Positions 2,391 through 48,298 of a stretch of 64,000 nucleotides of DNA are shown here, in pieces. The position numbers and the translations under genes are program-made. This DNA comes from Candidatus Woesebacteria bacterium RIFCSPHIGHO2_01_FULL_39_23 (GTDB taxonomy: Bacteria; Patescibacteriota; Microgenomatia; UBA8517). Each line of letters begins with the position of its first letter. Position 1 is the stretch's first letter. The notes beneath the pieces were generated by a model. It was not told where the DNA came from. It was given only the letters and a program-made list of their open reading frames with translations, and did no database searches. The stretch lies in NCBI GenBank assembly GCA_001792305.1, contig MGGH01000036.1:18599-82598 (forward strand), in the 5' to 3' direction.

Positions 2391-3559
2391 TTACATCTCT
2401 TCGCCAGTAACTCTTATTACTTCGCTTATTGTTGTACCTTGCGCCACCTTATCAAGGGCCGCCTCCTTAAGATTTTTTATACCCTTTTGTTTAACTAAAG
2501 GGAGAAGGTCAGATAGCTGAGGATTTTCCGTGATAATGGATCTGATTTCCTCGTCAAAAGGAACTACCTCGAAAATTCCAATGCGGCCTTTATAACCACT
2601 CGTTACGCATTCATTACACCCTCTACCTTTAAATAAAGTACTTCCAGAAATATTTTCTACAAACCTTAATTCATTTTGTTTTGGAGAATATTCTTCTTTG
2701 CAATTATTGCAAATTTTTCTTACCAATCTGGCTGATATTACTGCATTGACTGAATTGGCAGTAACAGACCTTGGTACTCCCATTTCAATGAGCCTTGCGG
2801 TTACGCCGAATACGTTTAGAGTGTGGAATGTAGAAAAAACTAGCCTACCGGTTAATGCTGCCTGAATCGAAATTTGAGCTGTCTCGTTGTCTCTTATTTC
2901 TCCGACCATAATTATGTCTGGATCTTGCCGTAGTACTGCTTTTAAAGCCTTGCAAAAGTAAACGCTGTTGCTTCGTTAACCTGGGTTTGTCTAATTTCTT
3001 CCATTTGGACTTCAACAGGGTCTTCAATTGTAATGATATTATTGGTTTCTTTTTTGACCGAATTTAGTATTGAGTAAAGGAGTGTAGTTTTTCCCGATCC
3101 AGATGGTCCGGTGATCAAGACCATTCCGTATGGGTCATTTATTAGTTTTAACATAGTTTTATGTTGGTTTTCGTCAAACCCAAGTTCTGAAATGTCTATT
3201 AAGATATCTTCCCTGTTTAGTATCCTCATTACGATTGACTCGCCATAAATAGTGGGGAATGCGGAAACACGTATGTTATAGATTCTGACGTCGTAATTAA
3301 ACTCGAAATGCCCATCTTGGGGAAGCCTATGCTCGGTAATATCTAGTCCGGCTAGAACCTTTATTCTAGAGGTGATAGATTCCACGCTGTCCAAATTTAC
3401 CCGTTCGACGTCGTAGAGCATGCCGTCGATTCGAAACCTTACCTTTATACCCTCTCTTTGAGGTTCCAGATGAATGTCACTTGCTCTTTTACCGATCGCG
3501 TCAGTAAGAAGCCTATTTAGCCAATCGTTTTCTCCGGCACGAAGAGTAAAGTCCACCAT
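2391..3559 (-). pseudogene. PilB/GspE-family secretion ATPase (type II secretion / type IV pilus) split into two ORFs by a 1-nt frameshift; lacks the N1 domain
   Basis: N-terminal fragment (3559..2942) carries Walker A LITGPSGSGKTTLLYS. C-terminal fragment (2909..2391) carries MVGEIRD, the His box LVFSTFHT and a tetracysteine motif. Read upstream past its ATG, the C-terminal frame continues KALKAVLRQDPDII, which joins the FTFA end of the N-terminal fragment with the expected motif order. The frames meet at about 2949-2957 inside a TTTT run on the minus strand. One extra T would restore a single ORF. Confidence 0.75.
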
Positions 3560-7845: not shown

Positions 7846-8305
7846 ATACCAAAATATATTCGATAAAGTAATAAAGTTTGCGACGCTTCGCCCCCGTTCA
7901 ATAAAAGAAATAGAACGTTACTTCAATAGAAAAAAGACTGTTAAAGGCGTACAAAAACAGCTGTTTAATAAACTAAAGAGTTTGGGATTAGTTGATGACA
8001 AAGAGTTTGCTCGCTGGTGGGTTGATCAAAGATTGACATTTAGACCGAAAGGAGAAAGATTACTTAGAAATGAATTAAGAATAAAAGGTATCTCTGAAGA
8101 CATTATAAGTACCGTTTTTGAGGAGAAAAATGTTATAAATGAACAAAAAAAGATAGCTACAAATATAATGAGTAAAAAAGTAAATCAATATAATAATTTA
8201 CCAATGAATAAAGCCAGAAAGAGAGCGTACAGCTTACTCTTAAGGAGGGGTTTTGACTGGGACATTGCAAGGGAAGTGATTGACGAATTTCTTGATAAAA
8301 AGTAA
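7826..8305 (+). CDS. recX: RecA regulator RecX
   Basis: Overlaps the 3' end of recA. Helical repeat protein with [14 protein letters not shown]...[29 protein letters not shown], typical of RecX. Confidence 0.8.
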
Positions 8306-8372
8306 AATCAAAAGGAAGCAATATGCTTGAGGAGTTAAGAAAATTAAATCTTCTCAACAATTACTCTTAAGA

Positions 8373-9641
8373 GTGAATTTTTTGCTTCAAGTTTATATGT
8401 CAAAAGACGATATTAAGATACTGCTTGACGAGATAAGGCACGATAGGGAACTCTTGGGAAAAAAAGAAGTGTCTTTAAAGGCAAGAGAAAGTGACCTTAT
8501 TGATAAATTGGAGAGAGTTTCTGGAATGACCAGAATTGAGGCCAGAAAAATACTTCTTGATGAGTTTCAAAGAAGTCTAACTTCGGAAGTGGCTAAAAAG
8601 ATAAGGCAAGCGGAAGAAAAGATAAAACTCGAAGCCAAAGAAAAGGCCAAAGAGATACTTGCTGACGCCATGAAGCATGGAGCGACAACTTACGTTGCGG
8701 AGTACACGGTTTCTACGGTTACAGTCGAATCCGAGGAAACAAAAGGCCGGATTATCGGTCGTGAAGGAAGAAACATTAGAAGTTTTGAAAAAGAAACCGG
8801 AGTAGAGATTGAGCTTGACGAGGGTAATGTAATCAGACTTTCATCTTTTGACTCAATTAGAAGAGAAATAGCAAGGAGAGCACTTGAGATGCTACTCAAG
8901 GATACCAGAATACAACCTTCAAGAATTGAAGAAGTAGTAAGGCTTGTTAAGTCACAGATGGAAGATATTCTTCTTGAAGAAGGAAAGAAAATTGCTCAGG
9001 AATGCGGTGTTTTTAATCTTCCAACAGAAGTAGTAAAGCTTATTGGCAGATTTAAATTTAGAACTTCTTACGGTCAAAATTTAGCTCTTCACACAATTGA
9101 AGAAACCAAAATAGGTGTGTCGGTTGCCTCAGAAATAGGTGCTGATACTGAAATAGTGAGGCTTGGTTGCATTTTGCATGATATTGGTAAAGTTGTGACA
9201 GATGTTGAAGGAAATCATGTAGATGCAGGAGTAGCGACAGTCAAACGTTTCGGATTTCCAAAAGAAGTGATAGCAGCTGTTGCAGAGCATCATGAAGATA
9301 AGCCGTTTTCGTCTACCGAGTCTGTCATAGTTTGGATTGCCGATGCTGTTTCAGGTTCAAGACCTGGGGCACGCTACGAACCTTTTGAAGACTATGTAAA
9401 AAGAATGACTAAAATTGAGGAGATTTCAGGGAGTTTTCCAGGTGTAGATCAAGCAATAGCTTTCCAAGCGGGTCGCGATGTGAGAGTGATAGTTAAGCCA
9501 GAAGAAGTTGATGAAGATAAGTTAACAGTTCTCGCCAACGATATAGTAAGTAGGCTCGAAAAAGAAGCCGAATATGCGGGACAAGTAAAAGTTACAGTAA
9601 TTCGAGAAACCCGTGCTCAAGCCACAACTACGGCAAAATAA
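8373..9641 (+). CDS. rny: Ribonuclease Y (KH + HD domains; lacks the usual N-terminal TM anchor; ATG at 8397 is a likely start)
   Basis: KH motif GRIIGREGRNIRSFEKETGVEI. HD domain LHDIGK...HH. Coiled-coil N-terminal region. Confidence 0.85.
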   Translation: MNFLLQVYMSKDDIKILLDEIRHDRELLGKKEVSLKARESDLIDKLERVSGMTRIEARKILLDEFQRSLTSEVAKKIRQAEEKIKLEAKEKAKEILADAMKHGATTYVAEYTVSTVTVESEETKGRIIGREGRNIRSFEKETGVEIELDEGNVIRLSSFDSIRREIARRALEMLLKDTRIQPSRIEEVVRLVKSQMEDILLEEGKKIAQECGVFNLPTEVVKLIGRFKFRTSYGQNLALHTIEETKIGVSVASEIGADTEIVRLGCILHDIGKVVTDVEGNHVDAGVATVKRFGFPKEVIAAVAEHHEDKPFSSTESVIVWIADAVSGSRPGARYEPFEDYVKRMTKIEEISGSFPGVDQAIAFQAGRDVRVIVKPEEVDEDKLTVLANDIVSRLEKEAEYAGQVKVTVIRETRAQATTTAK

Positions 9642-9695
9642 CAAGAATACTTGACAAAGGAAATTCTTTAAATTATGCTTGTGGCGTAATAGTTT

Positions 9696-9974
9696 ATGAC
9701 AAAAAGGGAAATTATTGAACTTGTAGCTCGCAAGTCTCATCTAACCAAGAGAGCTACGGAAGAGTGTATTGATGTTTTTCTTTCTGAAATCGGCAGGGTT
9801 TTGGCTAAAGGAGAAAAAAGAGTAGTATTATCTGGTTTTGGTACTTTCAGGGTGATTCCGGTAAAGTCAAAAACAGTAAAGATTCCTAATACTGAGAAGT
9901 TTGTAACTATCAAATCCCACAGATCCCCCAAATTTACTCCGGGCAAAAAATTCAAAAGAGCAGTTTCTCGGTGA
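9696..9974 (+). CDS. hup: HU-family DNA-binding protein
   Basis: 92 aa. MTKREIIELVA...GFGTFRVIPVKSKTVKIPNTEKFVTIKSHRSPKFTPGKKFK matches the HU/IHF fold with its beta-arm. Confidence 0.85.
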   Translation: MTKREIIELVARKSHLTKRATEECIDVFLSEIGRVLAKGEKRVVLSGFGTFRVIPVKSKTVKIPNTEKFVTIKSHRSPKFTPGKKFKRAVSR

Positions 9975-9987
9975 TATACTTTAAGTA

Positions 9988-10995
9988 ATGGACCTTTCGG
10001 TTAAAGTTCACCGATTGACTAAAAATTTTGAAGTGACAGTAAAAAAACCTGGGCTGAAAGAGGCGATTAAAGCTTTATTTAATCCAGAGAAAAAGACTGT
10101 ACATGCTTTAAAACAAATTTCCTTCACGATTGAAGAAGGCGAGCTTGTTGGATTCATTGGTCCTAATGGTGCAGGAAAAACTACAACACTTAAAACTCTT
10201 TCAGGCCTGCTTTACCCAACTAGTGGACATGTATTGGTAGAAGGCTTTGATCCATGGGATCGAAAGAGTGAATTCTTAAAAAAAATCGCTCTGGTCATGG
10301 GACAAAAAAACCAGCTTTGGTGGGATTTACCTGCAATTGAAACTTTTGAACTGAATCGCGCGATTTACGAAATACCCCGTAAAAAGTATGAGGAAAGCTT
10401 GAATGAGTTAGTAAGTCTTCTTGATGTCAAAAAATTGTTGAGTATTCCTGTCAGGCGCCTTTCATTGGGTCAGAGAATGAGACTTGAACTTGTGGCGGCG
10501 CTTATTCATGGGCCCAAAGTTCTATTTTTGGACGAGCCAACAATTGGTTTGGACGTTGTGGCTTCTCAGAAAATGAGAGATTTTATCCTGAGTTACAATA
10601 AAAGGTTTAAGGCGACGGTAATATTGACCTCGCATAATATGGGAGATGTGGCAAGTCTTGCCAAGCGAGTGATAGTAATAGATAAGGGGAAGATAATATT
10701 TGATGGGAATTTAAGTGAGCTGGTATCTTTGTATGCTAAGGAGAAGATAATTAAAGTAGTACTGTCAGGCGATGGAGATTATAAAAGTTTGGAAAAAATT
10801 GGTAAAGTTATCAGCATTTCGATTCCTAAAGTTGAGATTTTAGTTTCTCGATCAATGGCTACATTGGCCGCATCCGAAATACTCCAGAATTTTTCCGTTG
10901 AAGACTTGAACATTGAGGAAGAGCCAGTTGAAAACGTCGTTCGAAGAATTTTTAGTGGTGAAACTAAAAACCTAAAGAGAAAGAAGAATGGATAA
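9988..10995 (+). CDS. ABC transporter ATP-binding protein
   Basis: Walker A GPNGAGKTTTLKTL. ABC signature LSLGQRMR. Walker B LFLDEPT. Confidence 0.85.
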   Translation: MDLSVKVHRLTKNFEVTVKKPGLKEAIKALFNPEKKTVHALKQISFTIEEGELVGFIGPNGAGKTTTLKTLSGLLYPTSGHVLVEGFDPWDRKSEFLKKIALVMGQKNQLWWDLPAIETFELNRAIYEIPRKKYEESLNELVSLLDVKKLLSIPVRRLSLGQRMRLELVAALIHGPKVLFLDEPTIGLDVVASQKMRDFILSYNKRFKATVILTSHNMGDVASLAKRVIVIDKGKIIFDGNLSELVSLYAKEKIIKVVLSGDGDYKSLEKIGKVISISIPKVEILVSRSMATLAASEILQNFSVEDLNIEEEPVENVVRRIFSGETKNLKRKKNG

Positions 10996-45232: not shown

Positions 45233-46291
45233 ATGTTTAGTAAAAGACGAGTAGCCATCGCCGCTTTTTTTGTTTTAACGGTAGGATTCGTGTACCTAAA
45301 TCTAAGTGGCAAAGCGCCTGGGATTCAGAATTTTGTTGAGCTTGGTGATCAGGAAAACTTAGGAGGACCTGGGAACGAGCCTCATCCGTTGTCAATTGAG
45401 GCACTTCGTGAGGGTGAATACCCCGGTAGCGATATCGCCATTGAACAGACACTCTCACCTGGGAGCAATTATCAAAGGTATATTGCTTCTTATAAATCAG
45501 AAGGTCTGAAAATTTACGGACTACTGACCGTGCCAAACGGCAGTCCTACGGCAGAATCGGGTTGGCCTGCAATTGTTTTTAATCACGGATATATTTCACC
45601 AAGCGTCTACAAAACGACCGAAAAGTACGTTATCTATCAGGATGCTTTTGCACGAGCAGGTTATGTGACATTTAAATCCGATTTTCGAGGCCATGGAAAC
45701 TCGGAAGGTACCGCCACTGGTGGCTACGGGACAAATGACTATACAATAGACGTTTTAAATGCGGTCTCGACAATTAAAAAATATTCCCAAGTTGATCCAA
45801 ACCGAATTGGAATGTGGGGACATTCGATGGGGGGGCACATAACGCTTGAGGCAATGGTGGTTGGTCGCGACATTAAAGCGGGTGTAATTTGGGCAGGGGT
45901 AACCGGTTCCTACAGTGACTTATTTGAACGGTGGAGAAGAAGTCCAATCCCCGGAAACACAAGCTTGACTCGCCAACGAGGTAGGTGGAGGCAAGAATTA
46001 TCAAGTAAGTATGGCACACCTGAGCAAAACCCAGATTTTTGGGAAGCCCTTTCTGCAACAAGTTATTTATCCGATATTTCAGGGCCATTACAGCTTCACC
46101 ATGGCGCAGCCGACTCCTCTGTGCCTATAGAGTTTTCCCAAAATCTAGAGTCACAATTAAAAGAAGCCGGGAAAGATGTGGAACTTTTTGTTTATAACGG
46201 TGATGATCATAACCTTTCAAAAAATTTATCCTTAGCGCTGACGAGATCAGTTGATTTTTTTGACAAACATCTTAAAGAAGGAGGTGAGTAA
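45233..46291 (+). CDS. Alpha/beta hydrolase (S9 prolyl oligopeptidase / dienelactone hydrolase-like), secreted or anchored
   Basis: Nucleophile elbow GMWGHSMGG. Downstream Asp and His (GDDHN). Confidence 0.75.
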   Translation: MFSKRRVAIAAFFVLTVGFVYLNLSGKAPGIQNFVELGDQENLGGPGNEPHPLSIEALREGEYPGSDIAIEQTLSPGSNYQRYIASYKSEGLKIYGLLTVPNGSPTAESGWPAIVFNHGYISPSVYKTTEKYVIYQDAFARAGYVTFKSDFRGHGNSEGTATGGYGTNDYTIDVLNAVSTIKKYSQVDPNRIGMWGHSMGGHITLEAMVVGRDIKAGVIWAGVTGSYSDLFERWRRSPIPGNTSLTRQRGRWRQELSSKYGTPEQNPDFWEALSATSYLSDISGPLQLHHGAADSSVPIEFSQNLESQLKEAGKDVELFVYNGDDHNLSKNLSLALTRSVDFFDKHLKEGGE

Positions 46292-46292
46292 G

Positions 46293-46880
46293 ATGGAAGA
46301 ATCTAACGAAGTTAGTGAGAAGGAAATTAAGAAAAGCATCAATCCAATATTTATTATTGGAGCAGTCTTAACCACGTTAGTGGCGTTGTTGGTTGTAGCA
46401 AATATAAGTTTACAGAAGACTGATGTTGCTTCCGTGGCAGGAGTAAAAGATGAAGCAAACGGGTTAAGTCAAGATTTGTCTGATAATGATTTAACTGTGA
46501 AAGTTGTGAATGTCGATGCGGGTAGTTTTTATTATAGCAGAACCCAAGAAAACCGTGAGCTCTCAGCTCACGAATGAATTGAATTCTGATATGTCATCCT
46601 CCTTTAGAGGAAACCCCGCTTTTCAAAGCGGGGAGGATGTCATAAACCAAATGAAATCAGGGTCAAAAAAGGCGAAAAAGTTAAAGTTGTTATGAAATCG
46701 GTTGATATGATGCATGATTTTGTAATCGATGAACTTGGTGTCCGCACAAGAATTGCACAAGCAGGAGAGATGGCAGAGGTAGAATTTGGTGTAAATAAAA
46801 CTGGAGAGCTCGAATTTTACTGTAGTATAGGCAACCATCGGGATATGGGTATGGTTGGCACGCTTATTATTGAAGAGTAG
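46293..46880 (+). pseudogene. Cupredoxin-like (pfam13473-type) membrane-anchored copper protein, interrupted
   Basis: TM N-terminus, then a beta-strand ...TVKVVNVDAGSFYYS, and after the insertion in the same frame KPNEIRVKKGEKVKVVMKSVDMMHDFVIDELG...EFYCSIGNHRDMGMVGTLIIEE (Cys/His/Met copper site). The reading frame is broken by stop codons at 46575, 46587 and 46608. Confidence 0.6.
46539..46643 (+). other. 105-nt in-frame insertion with nested hairpins inside the cupredoxin gene (MITE-like or RNA-structured element)
   Basis: Hairpin CGTGAGCT-CTC-AGCTCACG (46554-46572). Outer inverted repeat TATGTCATCCTCC (46590-46602) with GGAGGATGTCATA (46632-46644), enclosing CCCCGC-TTTTCAAA-GCGGGG. Flanked by imperfect direct repeats AACCCAAGAAAAC and AACCAAATGAAATC. 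Confidence 0.5.
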
Positions 46881-46894
46881 TTGTGTTGAATTTA

Positions 46895-47080
46895 TTGACA
46901 GGTTTTAACACCTTTTATATAATTGTCCCAATGTTTTGGCATTTTGGAATTACTAAAAACCAGTACAACCTCGCCGTCTGCGGGGCAATCTTTGCTGGTT
47001 TGAAGCAATTCGAAATCATAATCTAGCTAGAACAAACGATACTTTTTGCAAAACCAGCTAAAGAACGGCTGGTTTTTTTT
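46895..47080 (+). promoter_or_regulatory. Sigma70 consensus promoter, about 150-nt structured leader and intrinsic terminator upstream of the MFS transporter (candidate riboswitch/attenuator)
   Basis: TTGACA (46895-46900), 17 nt, TATAAT (46918-46923). Terminator AACCAGC-TAAAGAACG-GCTGGTT plus T8 (47052-47080), with RBS GGAG and the ATG 8-16 nt later. Terminator arms are duplicated upstream (AAAACCAG 46956-46963; GCTGGTTT 46994-47001), which allows mutually exclusive folds. Confidence 0.5.
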
Positions 47081-47095
47081 GTAGGAGTCAAAATT

Positions 47096-48298
47096 ATGGA
47101 TAGATTTATGAGTAAACTAAAAATGAACGTGAATAGCACGATTTCGCGCTACTACGCTTTTGTCTTTTTTAAAGACTTGGCGTTTTTCTCTGCCGTCTTA
47201 GTACCCTTTTTTACCGATTGGGGAGGAATTAATCTAACCCAAGTACAAATCTTACAATCATGGTTTATGTTTTGGATGTTTATCCTGGAAATTCCAACCG
47301 GAGCAGTGGCAGACTTCGTAGGAAGAAAACACTCGCTGGCACTTGGTGCTTTGGTCGTGGCAGTTGCAGCTTTGGTTTACGGAAGCCTGCCGAACTTTGG
47401 AGTTTTTTTATTGGGAGAATTTTTATTCGCCACTGCAATGGCTATGATGTCCGGGGCAGACGAGGCTCTTTTGTACGATTCTTTGAAGGAAGTGGGCAGG
47501 GAAGACGAGAGTAGAAAATTTTTTGGGAGAGCGAATTCTATACGTCTTACAGGCATGCTTTTGGCTGCACCTATCGGTTCGTTCATTGCTTCCAGAATAG
47601 GTTTGAATATGCCGATGGTTTTGTCAGCTATTCCATATTTATTAGCTAGCGTTATAGCCTGGAGCATTAGAGAACCCGGGATACGTGTCAAAAATTCTGA
47701 ATCCATAAGATATCTGATAATTGTGAGGGAAGGGATCAAGAGTCTTAAAGAGAACAAGAAACTGAAATTGTTAGCTATAGACGCAATAGTTGTTTCGTCT
47801 GCTGCAAATTTCATTATTTGGCTATACCAGCCTTTCTTAAAACTCGTCGGCATACCTATTTTATACTTCGGTGTTGTTCACGCCATGTTGGTTTTGTCTG
47901 AAATTATTGTTTCGAGTAACTTTGAAAGGTTAACTAAGATATTAAAAGGGGATAAGCAATACTTGAGATTTTCGGCAGCTGTTGTTGCTTTTTCATTTTT
48001 TTTAGTTGCCCTGTTTCCCAACGCCTTATCGGTTTTTGCTTTTGTGATAATTGGCGGAGGTGTTGGTTTAACAAGGCTTAATTTTATGTCGGCCATTATG
48101 AATAAATATATAGACTCGAAAAACCGGGCGACTATTCTATCTTCCATATCTATGTTCAGGAGATTTGCTCTGGTATTTTTAAACCCGATTATGGGTTTTA
48201 TTGCTGACAGATCTTTAGTGGTTGCATCATTTTCAGTGGGATTACTGGCACTCGGTATTTTTTTATTTTCCCCGCTTAGAAAAGAGGCTCTGGATTAA
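47096..48298 (+). CDS. MFS transporter
   Basis: 12 TM helices. MFS motif A-like GRKHSL in the loop between TM2 and TM3. Confidence 0.8.
   Translation: MDRFMSKLKMNVNSTISRYYAFVFFKDLAFFSAVLVPFFTDWGGINLTQVQILQSWFMFWMFILEIPTGAVADFVGRKHSLALGALVVAVAALVYGSLPNFGVFLLGEFLFATAMAMMSGADEALLYDSLKEVGREDESRKFFGRANSIRLTGMLLAAPIGSFIASRIGLNMPMVLSAIPYLLASVIAWSIREPGIRVKNSESIRYLIIVREGIKSLKENKKLKLLAIDAIVVSSAANFIIWLYQPFLKLVGIPILYFGVVHAMLVLSEIIVSSNFERLTKILKGDKQYLRFSAAVVAFSFFLVALFPNALSVFAFVIIGGGVGLTRLNFMSAIMNKYIDSKNRATILSSISMFRRFALVFLNPIMGFIADRSLVVASFSVGLLALGIFLFSPLRKEALD

Follow-up and report, generated by a model that had tools for sequence, protein, structure and literature searches.

Transposons of the IS200/IS605 group move as single strands by 'peel and paste', for which IS608 of Helicobacter pylori and ISDra2 are the mechanistic models. 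Palindrome-associated transposable elements (PATEs) are known, for example, from haloarchaea and Geobacillus stearothermophilus, and the HgcC RNA (Rfam RF00062) was first found in Methanocaldococcus jannaschii. In IS608 the left cleavage site lies 19 nt from the foot of the left hairpin, and the foot of the right hairpin lies 10 nt from the right cleavage site (PMC3201880). The cleavage sites and guides of IS608 are TTAC with AAAG on the left and TCAA with GAAT on the right (PMC5934647). A tetraloop of the UUCA type has been described as an 'RE-like' motif that sotRNAs and PATEs have in common with HgcC, which links HgcC to the right-end-like hairpins of PATEs (PMC4615843). Rickettsia palindromic elements (RPEs) are palindromic repeats that lie in frame within protein-coding genes (PMC10969869). 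We found no description in the literature of a family such as the one reported here in the lineages that carry it.

The window analyzed here, a 64,000-nt stretch of the genome of Candidatus Woesebacteria bacterium RIFCSPHIGHO2_01_FULL_39_23, contains a cupredoxin gene in two parts. Translation placed the open reading frame starting at ATG 46293 and the one closing at 46880 in a common frame with three stops between them, as an earlier note on this DNA had also read it. The 5' part is identical to residues 1–81 of P0003, a 94-aa protein annotated as 'hypothetical protein A2691_03345, Candidatus Woesebacteria bacterium RIFCSPHIGHO2_01_FULL_39_23', which runs 13 codons into the insert (RTQENRELSAHE). 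This publicly annotated protein is the truncation product of the split cupredoxin gene. The 3' part keeps the frame of the 5' part and is free of further damage; only three substitutions (46661, 46679 and 46694) separate it from the intact allele L001.

Two orthologues with 94% and 89% protein identity lack the insert and show the seamless junction ...TTTTTATTAT|AAACCAAATG (SFYY|KPNEI). The Pfam domains Cupredoxin_1 and Copper-bind were detected in the intact orthologues P0001 and P0002. In an alignment with the two intact genes, the window is longer than the empty site by exactly 108 nt (36 codons), with zero duplication. The earlier note had counted 105 nt (35 codons), which has to be corrected; the uninterrupted orthologues for which it had proposed to look exist, and their junction is not the FYYS-PNEI that it had written. 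In L001 and L002 the empty site reads ...TTATTAT|AAACC. The edge of the insert is ambiguous by 3 nt (ATA) on alignment alone, and only comparison with the repeat family described below fixes the boundaries listed in Table 1. The allele comparison demonstrates directly that the element was inserted at the Tyr81|Lys82 codon boundary, in the orientation of the gene, in an ancestor of this Woesebacteria population. Either absence before the insertion or later excision could account for the empty alleles.

The interrupted allele is present on at least 23 contigs of ENA, JGI and NCBI assemblies, and intact and interrupted alleles coexist in assemblies of the same ENA series, with ERZ27254762/809 and ERZ27254767/793 among the samples concerned. 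Ten interrupted contigs were compared, of which nine are identical to the window across the gene and the tenth (L256) diverges inside the element. Such a switch is what is expected where assemblers break at repeats, and it could be taken as a sign that the insert itself is an assembly or sequencing artefact, produced by a chimeric join at a repeat. However, an identical occupied site with both flanks in nine of the ten contigs, from differing samples and sources, leaves a vanishingly small chance for this explanation. Complete linkage to the insert was seen for nine substitutions, all of them no more than about 50 nt away from it on one side or the other, while the haplotypes farther upstream assort independently.

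Table 1 Features of the interrupted cupredoxin gene and of its insert (positions in the window)
Feature	Position	Strand	Basis
Cupredoxin 5' part, codons 1–81: N-terminal membrane anchor, linker, start of first beta-strand (...AGSFYY)	46293..46535	+	translation
Target and left cleavage site TTAT, outside the element, kept at the empty site	46532..46535	+	L001 and L002 empty sites; 102-site flanks
Very probable non-autonomous IS200/IS605-type element (PATE), 108 nt, AGCAGAACC...GGAGGATGTCAT	46536..46643	+	absent from orthologues; family profile; Rfam HgcC
Left-end module: leader of 17 nt that includes guide-like AAAA (46549-46552), followed by the hairpin	46536..46573	+	fold, family comparison
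Left hairpin, perfect 8 bp, CGTGAGCT-CTC-AGCTCACG	arms 46554-46561 / 46565-46572	+	
Conserved left-end box ATGAATTGAA, 3' of left hairpin	46574..46583	+	holds first stop
First in-frame stop, TGA	46575-46577	+	translation; within left-end box
Second in-frame stop, TGA	46587..46589	+	translation
Small middle hairpin CCTC-TTTA-GAGG	46599-46610	+	fold
Third in-frame stop, TAG	46605..46607	+	translation; inside middle hairpin
Right-end module: guide-like GAAA (46610-46613), hairpin, 10-nt tail	46610..46643	+	
Right GC hairpin CCCCGCTT-TTCA-AAGCGGGG, also pairable as CCCCGCTTT/AAAGCGGGG (46614-46622 / 46625-46633)	46614-46633	+	
Right tail AGGATGTCAT, closing with right cleavage site TCAT	TCAT 46640-46643	+	
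Cupredoxin 3' part, codons 82–159 and stop, KPNEIRVKKGEKV..., copper-ligand region (HDF ... CSIGNHRDMGM)	46644..46880	+	translation, allele alignment

An inspection of the insert revealed three hairpins. Its predicted fold reaches −44.6 kcal/mol as RNA (z = −6.3) and −26.8 kcal/mol as single-stranded DNA (z = −7.1), both against shuffled sequence. The perfect 8-bp hairpin of the earlier note is present as the left hairpin. A 13-bp outer inverted repeat had also been proposed around the GC hairpin; the enclosing repeat exists, but it is imperfect, with one mismatch between ATGTCATCCTCC and GGAGGATGTCAT. AGCAG... and ...GTCAT, the two termini of the element, do not form an inverted repeat. The left end of the window copy is degenerate, reading AGCAGAACCCAAGAA where the consensus is AACAGCATTCAAGAA; in its hairpin the pair at the foot is broken (C-A).

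The same layout is found in the HgcC RNA. The Rfam model aligned with the window copy at 46552-46656 over model positions 1-130 (31.4 bits, E = 3e-5), and eight other copies tested gave 27.9–30.8 bits over the full model length; all of these scores are below the 50-bit gathering threshold of HgcC. With each family at its gathering threshold, Rfam detected only RNase P RNA and two tRNAs in the whole window. The element and HgcC have in common a 5' hairpin, the stretch 'AUGA..UGAA', a further hairpin of small size, a GC hairpin whose tetraloop is rich in U, and a conserved tail that matches GAGGAxGUCA, whereas the middle part of the element is 26 nt shorter and its host is bacterial. We believe that the insert is very probably a miniature, protein-less derivative of an IS200/IS605 transposon, in which a left end and a right end are fused as in a PATE, with a three-hairpin layout like that of HgcC. 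An insertion of this sort is an ordinary kind of event. The family would thereby link the long-unexplained layout of HgcC RNA to complete IS200-type fusions of a left end with a right end.

Pattern scans yielded at least 143 copies of the element in Woesebacteria genomes and in groundwater and sediment metagenome contigs. These copies occupy 102 distinct sites and represent 63 different sequences. Several single contigs carry two or more copies, the Woesebacteria genomes L080, L095 and L103 also have them, and viral contigs have zero. A family-profile search with nhmmer recovered the window copy (E = 1.5e-26) as the sole one within the 64 kb, where a scan allowing up to three mismatches likewise gave no further copy. 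The secondary copies that the earlier note expected of a mobile element thus exist, all of them beyond the window. The modal length is 108 nt, found at 66 of the 102 sites. An in-frame length is therefore a property of the family and not special to the cupredoxin locus, for which it had been thought hard to explain as random decay; the strong structure invoked together with it is real and far beyond that of shuffled sequence.

TTAT stands directly 5' of the element at 101 of the 102 sites (per base, T at 101, T at 102, A at 102 and T at 102), and the right flanks are unconstrained. Every copy ends in ...GGAGGATGTCA(T/C) at the 3' side. The way the scan was built makes the box ATGAATTGAA identical in every copy. 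A classical MITE has terminal inverted repeats, a target-site duplication and a DDE transposase. This class was rejected for the present family, which shows no terminal inverted repeats, and no duplication either here or across the 102 sites. Of the proposal of a MITE-like mobile element, the mobile part is borne out by the dispersed family and the empty-site alleles, while the element is of the IS200/IS605-type PATE kind instead. The two repeats once read as a target-site duplication are not one: AACCCAAGAAAAC belongs to the element itself, and AACCAAATGAAATC is ordinary coding sequence of the flank, which the empty site has as well.

The family agrees with PATEs in having no coding capacity, a length of about 100 nt, a hairpin near each end on one strand, duplication-free insertion 3' of a fixed tetranucleotide, a seamless empty site and the end motifs of TnpA-IS200 elements (PMC4615843; PMC10055086). 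It differs from them in its hosts, which are CPR bacteria (Woesebacteria) along with unassigned groundwater and sediment contigs, in its TTAT target, in a left-hairpin sequence that varies freely among copies, and in lengths strongly biased to multiples of three, with some copies probably translated within genes. The left hairpin occurs with 47 arm variants, most of them fully paired, and double compensatory changes were observed in up to 24 of 45 sequences per pair. The right hairpin covaries too and has 38 arm variants, again mostly fully paired. The 102 sites and the many hairpin variants provide natural material on how a Y1 transposase recognizes structure over sequence.

The spacing of the parts is close to that of IS608, with the left cleavage site outside the element and the right one inside it. 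Of 51 copies measured, 50 have 17 nt between TTAT and the foot of the left hairpin and the window copy has 18, against 19 nt in IS608; the distance from the foot of the right hairpin to the right cleavage site is 10 nt in both. Guide-like tetranucleotides, AANA with TTAT on the left and GANA with TCAT on the right, match their cleavage sites by position as in IS608, and the fourth position is complementary in both pairs; this is a correspondence of sequence only. IS608 is, however, 1.8 kb long and carries tnpA and tnpB, whereas the present element encodes nothing. By analogy with IS608, a Y1 (HUH) TnpA encoded elsewhere would bind both end hairpins on the + strand as single-stranded DNA, and the guide tetranucleotides just 5' of each hairpin would specify the cleavage sites. 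Two cuts would follow, one after the flanking TTAT on the left and one after the TCAT with which the element ends on the right. A single-stranded circle would then be excised and pasted 3' of another TTAT without duplication. Mobility of the element and its single-stranded DNA mechanism would both follow this model.

Two rounds of tblastn, the first with 13 and the second with 27 TnpA/TnpB-like queries, found no tnpA or tnpB either in the 64-kb window or in 788 kb around other copies. The single match, in L168, is a Cas12-like gene of 524 aa with a CRISPR array after it and was set aside as unrelated. A survey for autonomous IS200 elements comprised nine loci with six TnpA homologues. Elements that encode a Y1 transposase and have the same end motifs were recognized in L022, L246, L247, L261/L262 and L263, and the ORF of L022 matches Pfam Y1_Tnp with E = 1.3e-29. 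Their left end follows the pattern CAAGAAA.C, hairpin, GATGAATTG, the last being a box related to ATGAATTGAA, and their right end the pattern GGAAAC, hairpin, AGGATGTCAT. The end motifs are present in the loci of five of the six TnpA homologues, and the ends of the P0186 element differ. The autonomous elements share the motifs with the mini-elements without being close in sequence, and none is close enough to be the parent; at least one of them, L261/L262, appears to be inserted after TTAAT, not TTAT. L261 and the mini-element locus L165 come from the same JGI project. In many genomes the hairpin and tail motif of the right end also lies at the 3' end of genes for TnpB-like proteins and for IS200 TnpA. 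All this outlines a large family with a uniform TTAT target in Woesebacteria genomes and groundwater and sediment contigs, with transposase-encoding relatives in archaeal MAGs.

Many TnpB-like ORFs have the right-end hairpin and its AGGAxGTCA tail at their 3' end, which also bears on a further role. A putative transcript of the element could be a guide of the omega-RNA type, whose 3' flank (AAACCAAATGAAATC...) would direct a TnpB-like nuclease encoded elsewhere; the empty allele, that is TTAT and the target, would be cut and the element copied in by recombination ('homing'). This would add to the transposon reading and not replace it. PATEs often encode omega RNAs that act in trans (PMC10055086), and the nine insert-linked substitutions beside independent upstream haplotypes resemble a co-conversion tract, so that homing with co-conversion of the flanks between cupredoxin alleles, if true, would account for them. 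An old insertion with recombination eroding linkage on both sides explains these substitutions equally well, though. Moreover, no TnpB was found in the window or in the vicinity of the 143 copies, the L168 match being Cas12-like, and tnpA stands alone in the nearest autonomous relatives. We therefore consider a guide function quite improbable.

Copies of the element mostly reside outside genes. Only 23 of 79 tested sites lie in ORFs, in comparison with 62% of control TTAT sites. All 23 intragenic copies have a length divisible by three, as do most copies overall, and 11 of the 23 are open throughout in the host frame. The stop-free copies include those in TsaD, in BacA (two copies) and in an IleRS-like gene, while the stop-containing ones are mostly in dispensable-looking genes, a pattern expected of plain purifying selection. 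The thymidylate kinase gene of L215, which is apparently essential and is interrupted by a copy with a stop codon, is not comfortably accounted for by simple inactivation. For the stop-containing copies, an alternative code with TGA as glycine was considered and gave no specific signal; the TAG of the window copy would be a stop regardless.

The thymidylate kinase case speaks for an element that is excised from the RNA in the manner of an intron and so restores the frame in the mRNA, a possibility raised by the earlier note, and the multiple-of-three length and strong structure of the insert fit with it. Self-splicing introns are far larger than 108 nt. In addition, no Rfam intron family matched at E ≤ 10 in 46200-47100, genes are not the site of most copies, and the conserved TTAT, TCAT, guides and 17/10-nt spacing are features that IS608-type transposition uses on DNA. 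We give this idea, and with it the small excised RNA element suggested at the cupredoxin locus, very little credence.

Programmed translational bypass, for which phage T4 gene 60 is the type case, had been proposed as well. In this scenario the ribosome takes off at GAA (46572-46574) and lands at GAA 46653, or makes some other hop, to yield a functional cupredoxin. The first GAA does adjoin a stable hairpin on its 3' side and has a stop immediately after it, and a second GAA follows 78 nt downstream. Nor has the 3' part of the gene decayed further, but this is uninformative because nine of ten interrupted alleles are identical to the window. A hop from GAA to GAA would drop K-P-N, which is present in both intact orthologues and in the distant homologue P0007, and the product would gain 12 foreign residues relative to the orthologues. 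The insert belongs to a family of transposon ends with most copies outside ORFs, and the distribution of stops among dispensable-looking genes and TsaD, BacA and the IleRS-like gene likewise argues against bypass, which we regard as very improbable.

With these exotic readings removed, the cupredoxin locus presents a transposon-disrupted allele beside intact alleles. The window copy is a 38+70-nt length variant, so that the host frame meets TGA, TGA and TAG within the element and translation would end after 94 residues. The copper-binding domain would be left without a start codon or membrane anchor of its own. Given these stops, the cupredoxin with the insert is most likely a null allele, its function presumably lost. 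Function would be regained only through precise excision mediated by TnpA, and excision of the window copy looks less likely because its left end has diverged from the family consensus.

The open copies elsewhere suggest a different outcome. Eleven family copies open in the host frame would form insertions of 34–36 residues, similar to RPEs. The window copy, with its three stops, differs from RPEs in not being read through, and the present family differs from them in being assignable to the IS200/IS605 transposition machinery. Multiple-of-three lengths and partly open frames may allow the elements to persist as 34–36-residue inserts in essential genes, and the copies that are apparently read through suggest a route of protein-insertion evolution like that of Rickettsia RPEs. 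That the elements are more than inert transposon ends, serving as translated RPE-like inserts in essential CPR genes and/or in homing with an omega-type guide RNA, is in our estimate unlikely. The organisms that carry the family and its relatives, among them ultra-small microbes of groundwater, have small, gene-dense genomes and no culture-based genetics. The signature TTAT | A[A/G]CAG ... GGAGGATGTCAT can be used in annotation to flag split or lengthened genes in MAGs. A protein search with the translated element, intended to count the host proteins in which it lies in frame, gave only nine short ORFs and is uninformative. Copies lying in frame would encode peptides such as NSIQEHSAVYCGDELNADMSSSFGGIPR.

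Translated in one frame, the gene at 46293-46880 encodes an N-terminal membrane-anchored segment ending ...AGSFYYS, then 35 codons with three stops, beyond which the cupredoxin frame resumes with KPNEIRVKKGEKV... and runs to the stop at 46880. The joined cupredoxin was used as the query of a protein search, which gave four informative matches. P0001 (94% identity) and P0002 (89%) are uninterrupted 159-aa orthologues, and P0003 and P0004 are 94-aa truncated products. P0003, named [quoted passage not shown] by NCBI, is exactly the window ORF up to the first stop. DNA alignment of the window with the intact genes of loci L001 and L002 left a single gap of exactly 108 nt; the insert therefore has 36 codons and not the 35 (105 nt) counted in the earlier note, which had also placed the junction at FYYS-PNEI where the intact proteins read SFYY/KPNEI. 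The empty site of L001 and L002 reads ...GGTAGTTTTTATTAT joined to AAACCAAATGAAATC..., with no duplicated bases. The flanking direct repeats that the earlier note took for a target-site duplication are one copy inside the insert and one in normal coding sequence. The three in-frame stops and the hairpins it described were borne out by translation and folding, and the orthologue comparison it proposed did find uninterrupted cupredoxin genes. A 3-nt border ambiguity (ATA) left by the alignment alone was resolved by the family-wide flanks (TTAT before the element, A(A/G)CAG at its start, GTCAT at its end). The right flank of the window element starts AAACC.

Features of the interrupted cupredoxin gene, in window coordinates
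Feature	Position	Strand	Evidence
In-frame stop TGA	46575	+	translation
In-frame stop TGA	46587	+	translation
In-frame stop TAG	46605	+	translation
Window element	46536-46643	+	alignment and family comparison
Target TTAT	46532-46535	+	family flank comparison
Perfect 8-bp hairpin	46554-46572	+	repeat search
9-bp GC hairpin	46614-46633	+	repeat search

HgcC (RF00062) was the sole significant match in the insert region in an Rfam scan with permissive thresholds, covering the whole model at 46552-46656 on the + strand with 31.4 bits (E = 3e-5), below the gathering score of 50 bits. HgcC has a "RE-like" tetraloop hairpin in common with two other classes, RNAs overlapping the 3' end of IS1341-type tnpB genes and palindrome-associated transposable elements (PATEs), in which the two ends of an IS200/IS605 element, left and right, are fused (PMC4615843). 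The match and this published link together suggested that the insert is a PATE. The right-end motif CCCCGC-N8-GCGGGGAGGANGTCA was found at at least 119 loci in species-representative genomes of archaea and bacteria. Many of these coincide with or closely follow the 3' end of an ORF whose C-terminus is TnpB-like (...CxxCG...HDRDVNAAKNIL...), and in loci L022 and L032 the motif lies 3' of an IS200-type ORF for the Y1 transposase TnpA, that of L022 matching Pfam Y1_Tnp (E = 1.3e-29). The right-end motif is a transposon end, and the insert is an IS200/IS605-derived PATE of HgcC-like layout that disrupts the cupredoxin gene.

Close relatives without an adjacent transposase gene occur at four genome loci. 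Full-length copies are found in L080 and L095 (other Woesebacteria) and in L117, and L103, from the same Woesebacteria genome as L095, is a longer variant. Scanning metagenomes with the pattern ATGAATTGAA-N(44-74)-GGGGAGGATGTCA returned at least 120 loci, from which at least 143 copies, at least 102 distinct insertion sites and at least 63 distinct sequences were extracted. The modal length is 108 nt (66 of 102 sites, among the matches listed), and on several contigs two or three copies occur together. Viral contigs yielded no copy, and the 64-kb window holds none besides 46536-46643. With a dispersed family and empty sites, the MITE-like mobile element of the earlier note stands in substance, without its target-site duplication. 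The contig-end locus L256 carries the interrupted allele and changes inside the element to a different right-hairpin variant and flank, which suggests that the community has at least one further related element and that the assembly broke at the repeat.

Among the matches listed, the element is preceded by TTAT almost without exception (T 101, T 102, A 102 and T 102 of 102 sites), position -5 is T in 74 of 102, and the bases 3' of the element are unconstrained across the 102 sites. The mini-element starts A(A/G)CAG and ends GTCAT. From the left cleavage site to the foot of the left hairpin there are 17 nt in the family (18 in the window copy) and 19 nt in IS608; from the foot of the right hairpin to the right cleavage site there are 10 nt in both, the family tail being AGGATGTCAT. 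The left cleavage site and the guide 5' of the left hairpin are TTAT and AANA (50/51) in the family and TTAC and AAAG in IS608; their right counterparts are TCAT and GANA (mostly) in the family and TCAA and GAAT in IS608. At the fourth position, guide and cleavage site are complementary in the left pair and in the right one. In IS608 the cleavage sites are recognised by the guides (PMC3201880), and the geometry and putative guides of the mini-element match its rules. The donor left by IS608 excision is resealed "without DNA gain or loss" (PMC3201880), with which the seamless empty site of the cupredoxin gene agrees.

The GC hairpin sits within an imperfect outer repeat, ATGTCATCCTCC/GGAGGATGTCAT. 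The insert region folds at -44.6 kcal/mol as RNA (z = -6.3 against dinucleotide shuffles) and at -26.8 kcal/mol as single-stranded DNA (z = -7.1). Across 45 distinct copies, RNAalifold gave two-sided changes in up to 24/45 sequences at seven left-hairpin pairs; the left hairpin has 47 arm versions and the right one 38, a majority with 8/8 positions paired. The structure of the family hairpins is kept through compensatory change, a constraint that would fit single-stranded DNA or RNA equally. On the minus strand, 46553-46573 and 46614-46633 each read as a hairpin followed by a T-rich tract (complementary to the putative guides AAAA and GAAA) with a terminator-like score, and antisense copies might terminate transcription.

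TnpA homologues of L022 are numerous, and nine loci encoding six of them were examined. The elements of L022, L246, L247, L259/L260, L261/L262 and L263 have the left end CAAGAAA.C - hairpin - GATGAATTG and the right end GGAA(A/G)C - hairpin - AG(G/T)A(T/G)GTCA(T/C), motifs that each appear to make up one half of the mini-element. In L261 and L262 one IS200 element occupies two different insertion sites, which seem to share the target TTAAT, and L261 and the mini-element locus L165 belong to a single JGI project. None of the examined elements is close enough in sequence to be the parent. Neither the window nor 788 kb of sequence surrounding the other copies yielded a tnpA or tnpB, the single hit being a Cas12-like gene adjoining a CRISPR array. 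Locus L168, which carries a mini-element, has at 7981-10050 a 524-aa TnpB/Cas12-like ORF followed by a repeat array (unit ...TTGCAGAACCTCTTAAGAAGAGTTAAAGAATGCAAC), probably a compact type V CRISPR locus. At L022 7290-7360 the tnpA frame lacks an ATG upstream of its conserved HVEW...KYR start, and just upstream of that start lies a hairpin, TTGAGAAAAC-TGATG-TTTTCTCAA, with an out-of-frame ATG in the loop; this could be an IS200-like translational control structure or a decayed gene.

The window element has the orientation of the cupredoxin gene and sits at a codon boundary. Entered at such a boundary, the commonest length variant (37 + 71 nt) leaves the frame open and reads NSIQEHSAVYCGDELNADMSSSFGGIPRSLERGGCH. 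The window copy is a 38 + 70-nt variant, which shifts the conserved box to GAA TGA ATT GAA and so creates the stops; translation is accordingly expected to stop after residue 94. For the copper-binding part only an internal ATG at 46692 remains, without the membrane anchor and first beta-strand, and we infer a null allele. Translational bypassing, proposed in the earlier note, would find its GAA-TGA take-off and a downstream GAA here, but its product would drop KPN, which the intact P0001 and P0002 and the more distant homologue P0007 all have at the junction, and gain 12 residues, which makes it highly improbable. Excision of the insert as RNA, also proposed there, is scarcely credible either, as no intron model matches the insert region and the features conserved across the family are ones that IS608-type transposition uses at the DNA level. 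Nothing in the family points to a rescue mechanism.

The interrupted allele is real and widespread, occurring on at least 23 contigs from ENA, JGI and NCBI assemblies. Of ten contigs fetched, nine match the window without a difference along the entire gene; the tenth (L256) departs from it within the element, as would be expected where an assembly breaks in a repeat. The same ENA series also contains intact alleles. At its left end the window copy reads AGCAGAACCCAAGAA where the consensus has AACAGCATTCAAGAA, which breaks a pair at the hairpin foot, and this copy may have lost its mobility. Close to the insert (within about 50 nt), nine substitutions, six upstream (up to 48 nt; 46488-46517) and three downstream (up to 51 nt; 46661-46694), are fully linked to it when the window and L258 are compared with L001 and L002; haplotypes farther upstream, at 46373-46442, assort independently. 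The linkage could reflect an old insertion, a diverged-allele remnant or a co-conversion tract. Located 3' of the cupredoxin gene, 46895-46923 is a perfect sigma-70-type promoter match (TTGACA-17-TATAAT), followed after about 125 nt by a terminator-like hairpin with a T-run (47050-47076) and directly by an MFS transporter gene (47096-48298). The region 46895-47095 matched no Rfam family and is a candidate regulatory leader.

Among the matches listed, long ORFs hold 23 of the 79 sites that could be tested, compared with 62% of the control TTAT sites. Stop-containing copies lie mostly in accessory-looking genes (type I restriction specificity subunit, GH39 glycosidase, HAD hydrolase, methyltransferase and the window cupredoxin), and an alternative genetic code is not indicated for them. 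Eleven of the 23 intragenic copies listed are read through without a stop as 34-36-residue insertions, resembling the Rickettsia palindromic elements (PMC10969869); read-through copies occur in L198 (oriented position 1048), L161 (two copies), L177, L134, L182, L210, L239, L232, L129, L154 and L156. Among the genes that carry them are one for TsaD (Pfam E = 1e-77 for the restored protein), a BacA/UppP gene with two copies and, on our reading, probably an IleRS-like gene. Lengths are divisible by three at 81/102 sites and in 43/63 distinct sequences (loci L080-L241, among the matches listed), four left/right combinations (36+72, 37+71, 38+70, 39+69) summing to 108. All 23 listed intragenic copies have such lengths; the chance of this is (81/102)^23, about 0.005, if sites are independent, with copy age as a confounder. 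At oriented position 4686 of L215, a 108-nt copy with one in-frame TGA interrupts a gene for thymidylate kinase (Pfam E = 8e-33 for the restored protein), an exception that fits poorly with the gene being essential and single-copy. Locus L131 (1-5254) has interrupted 16S rRNA matches, group I intron matches close to the threshold (46.7 and 43 bits against 50) and three mini-element copies, one of them inside the span of the intron match at 3165-3528.
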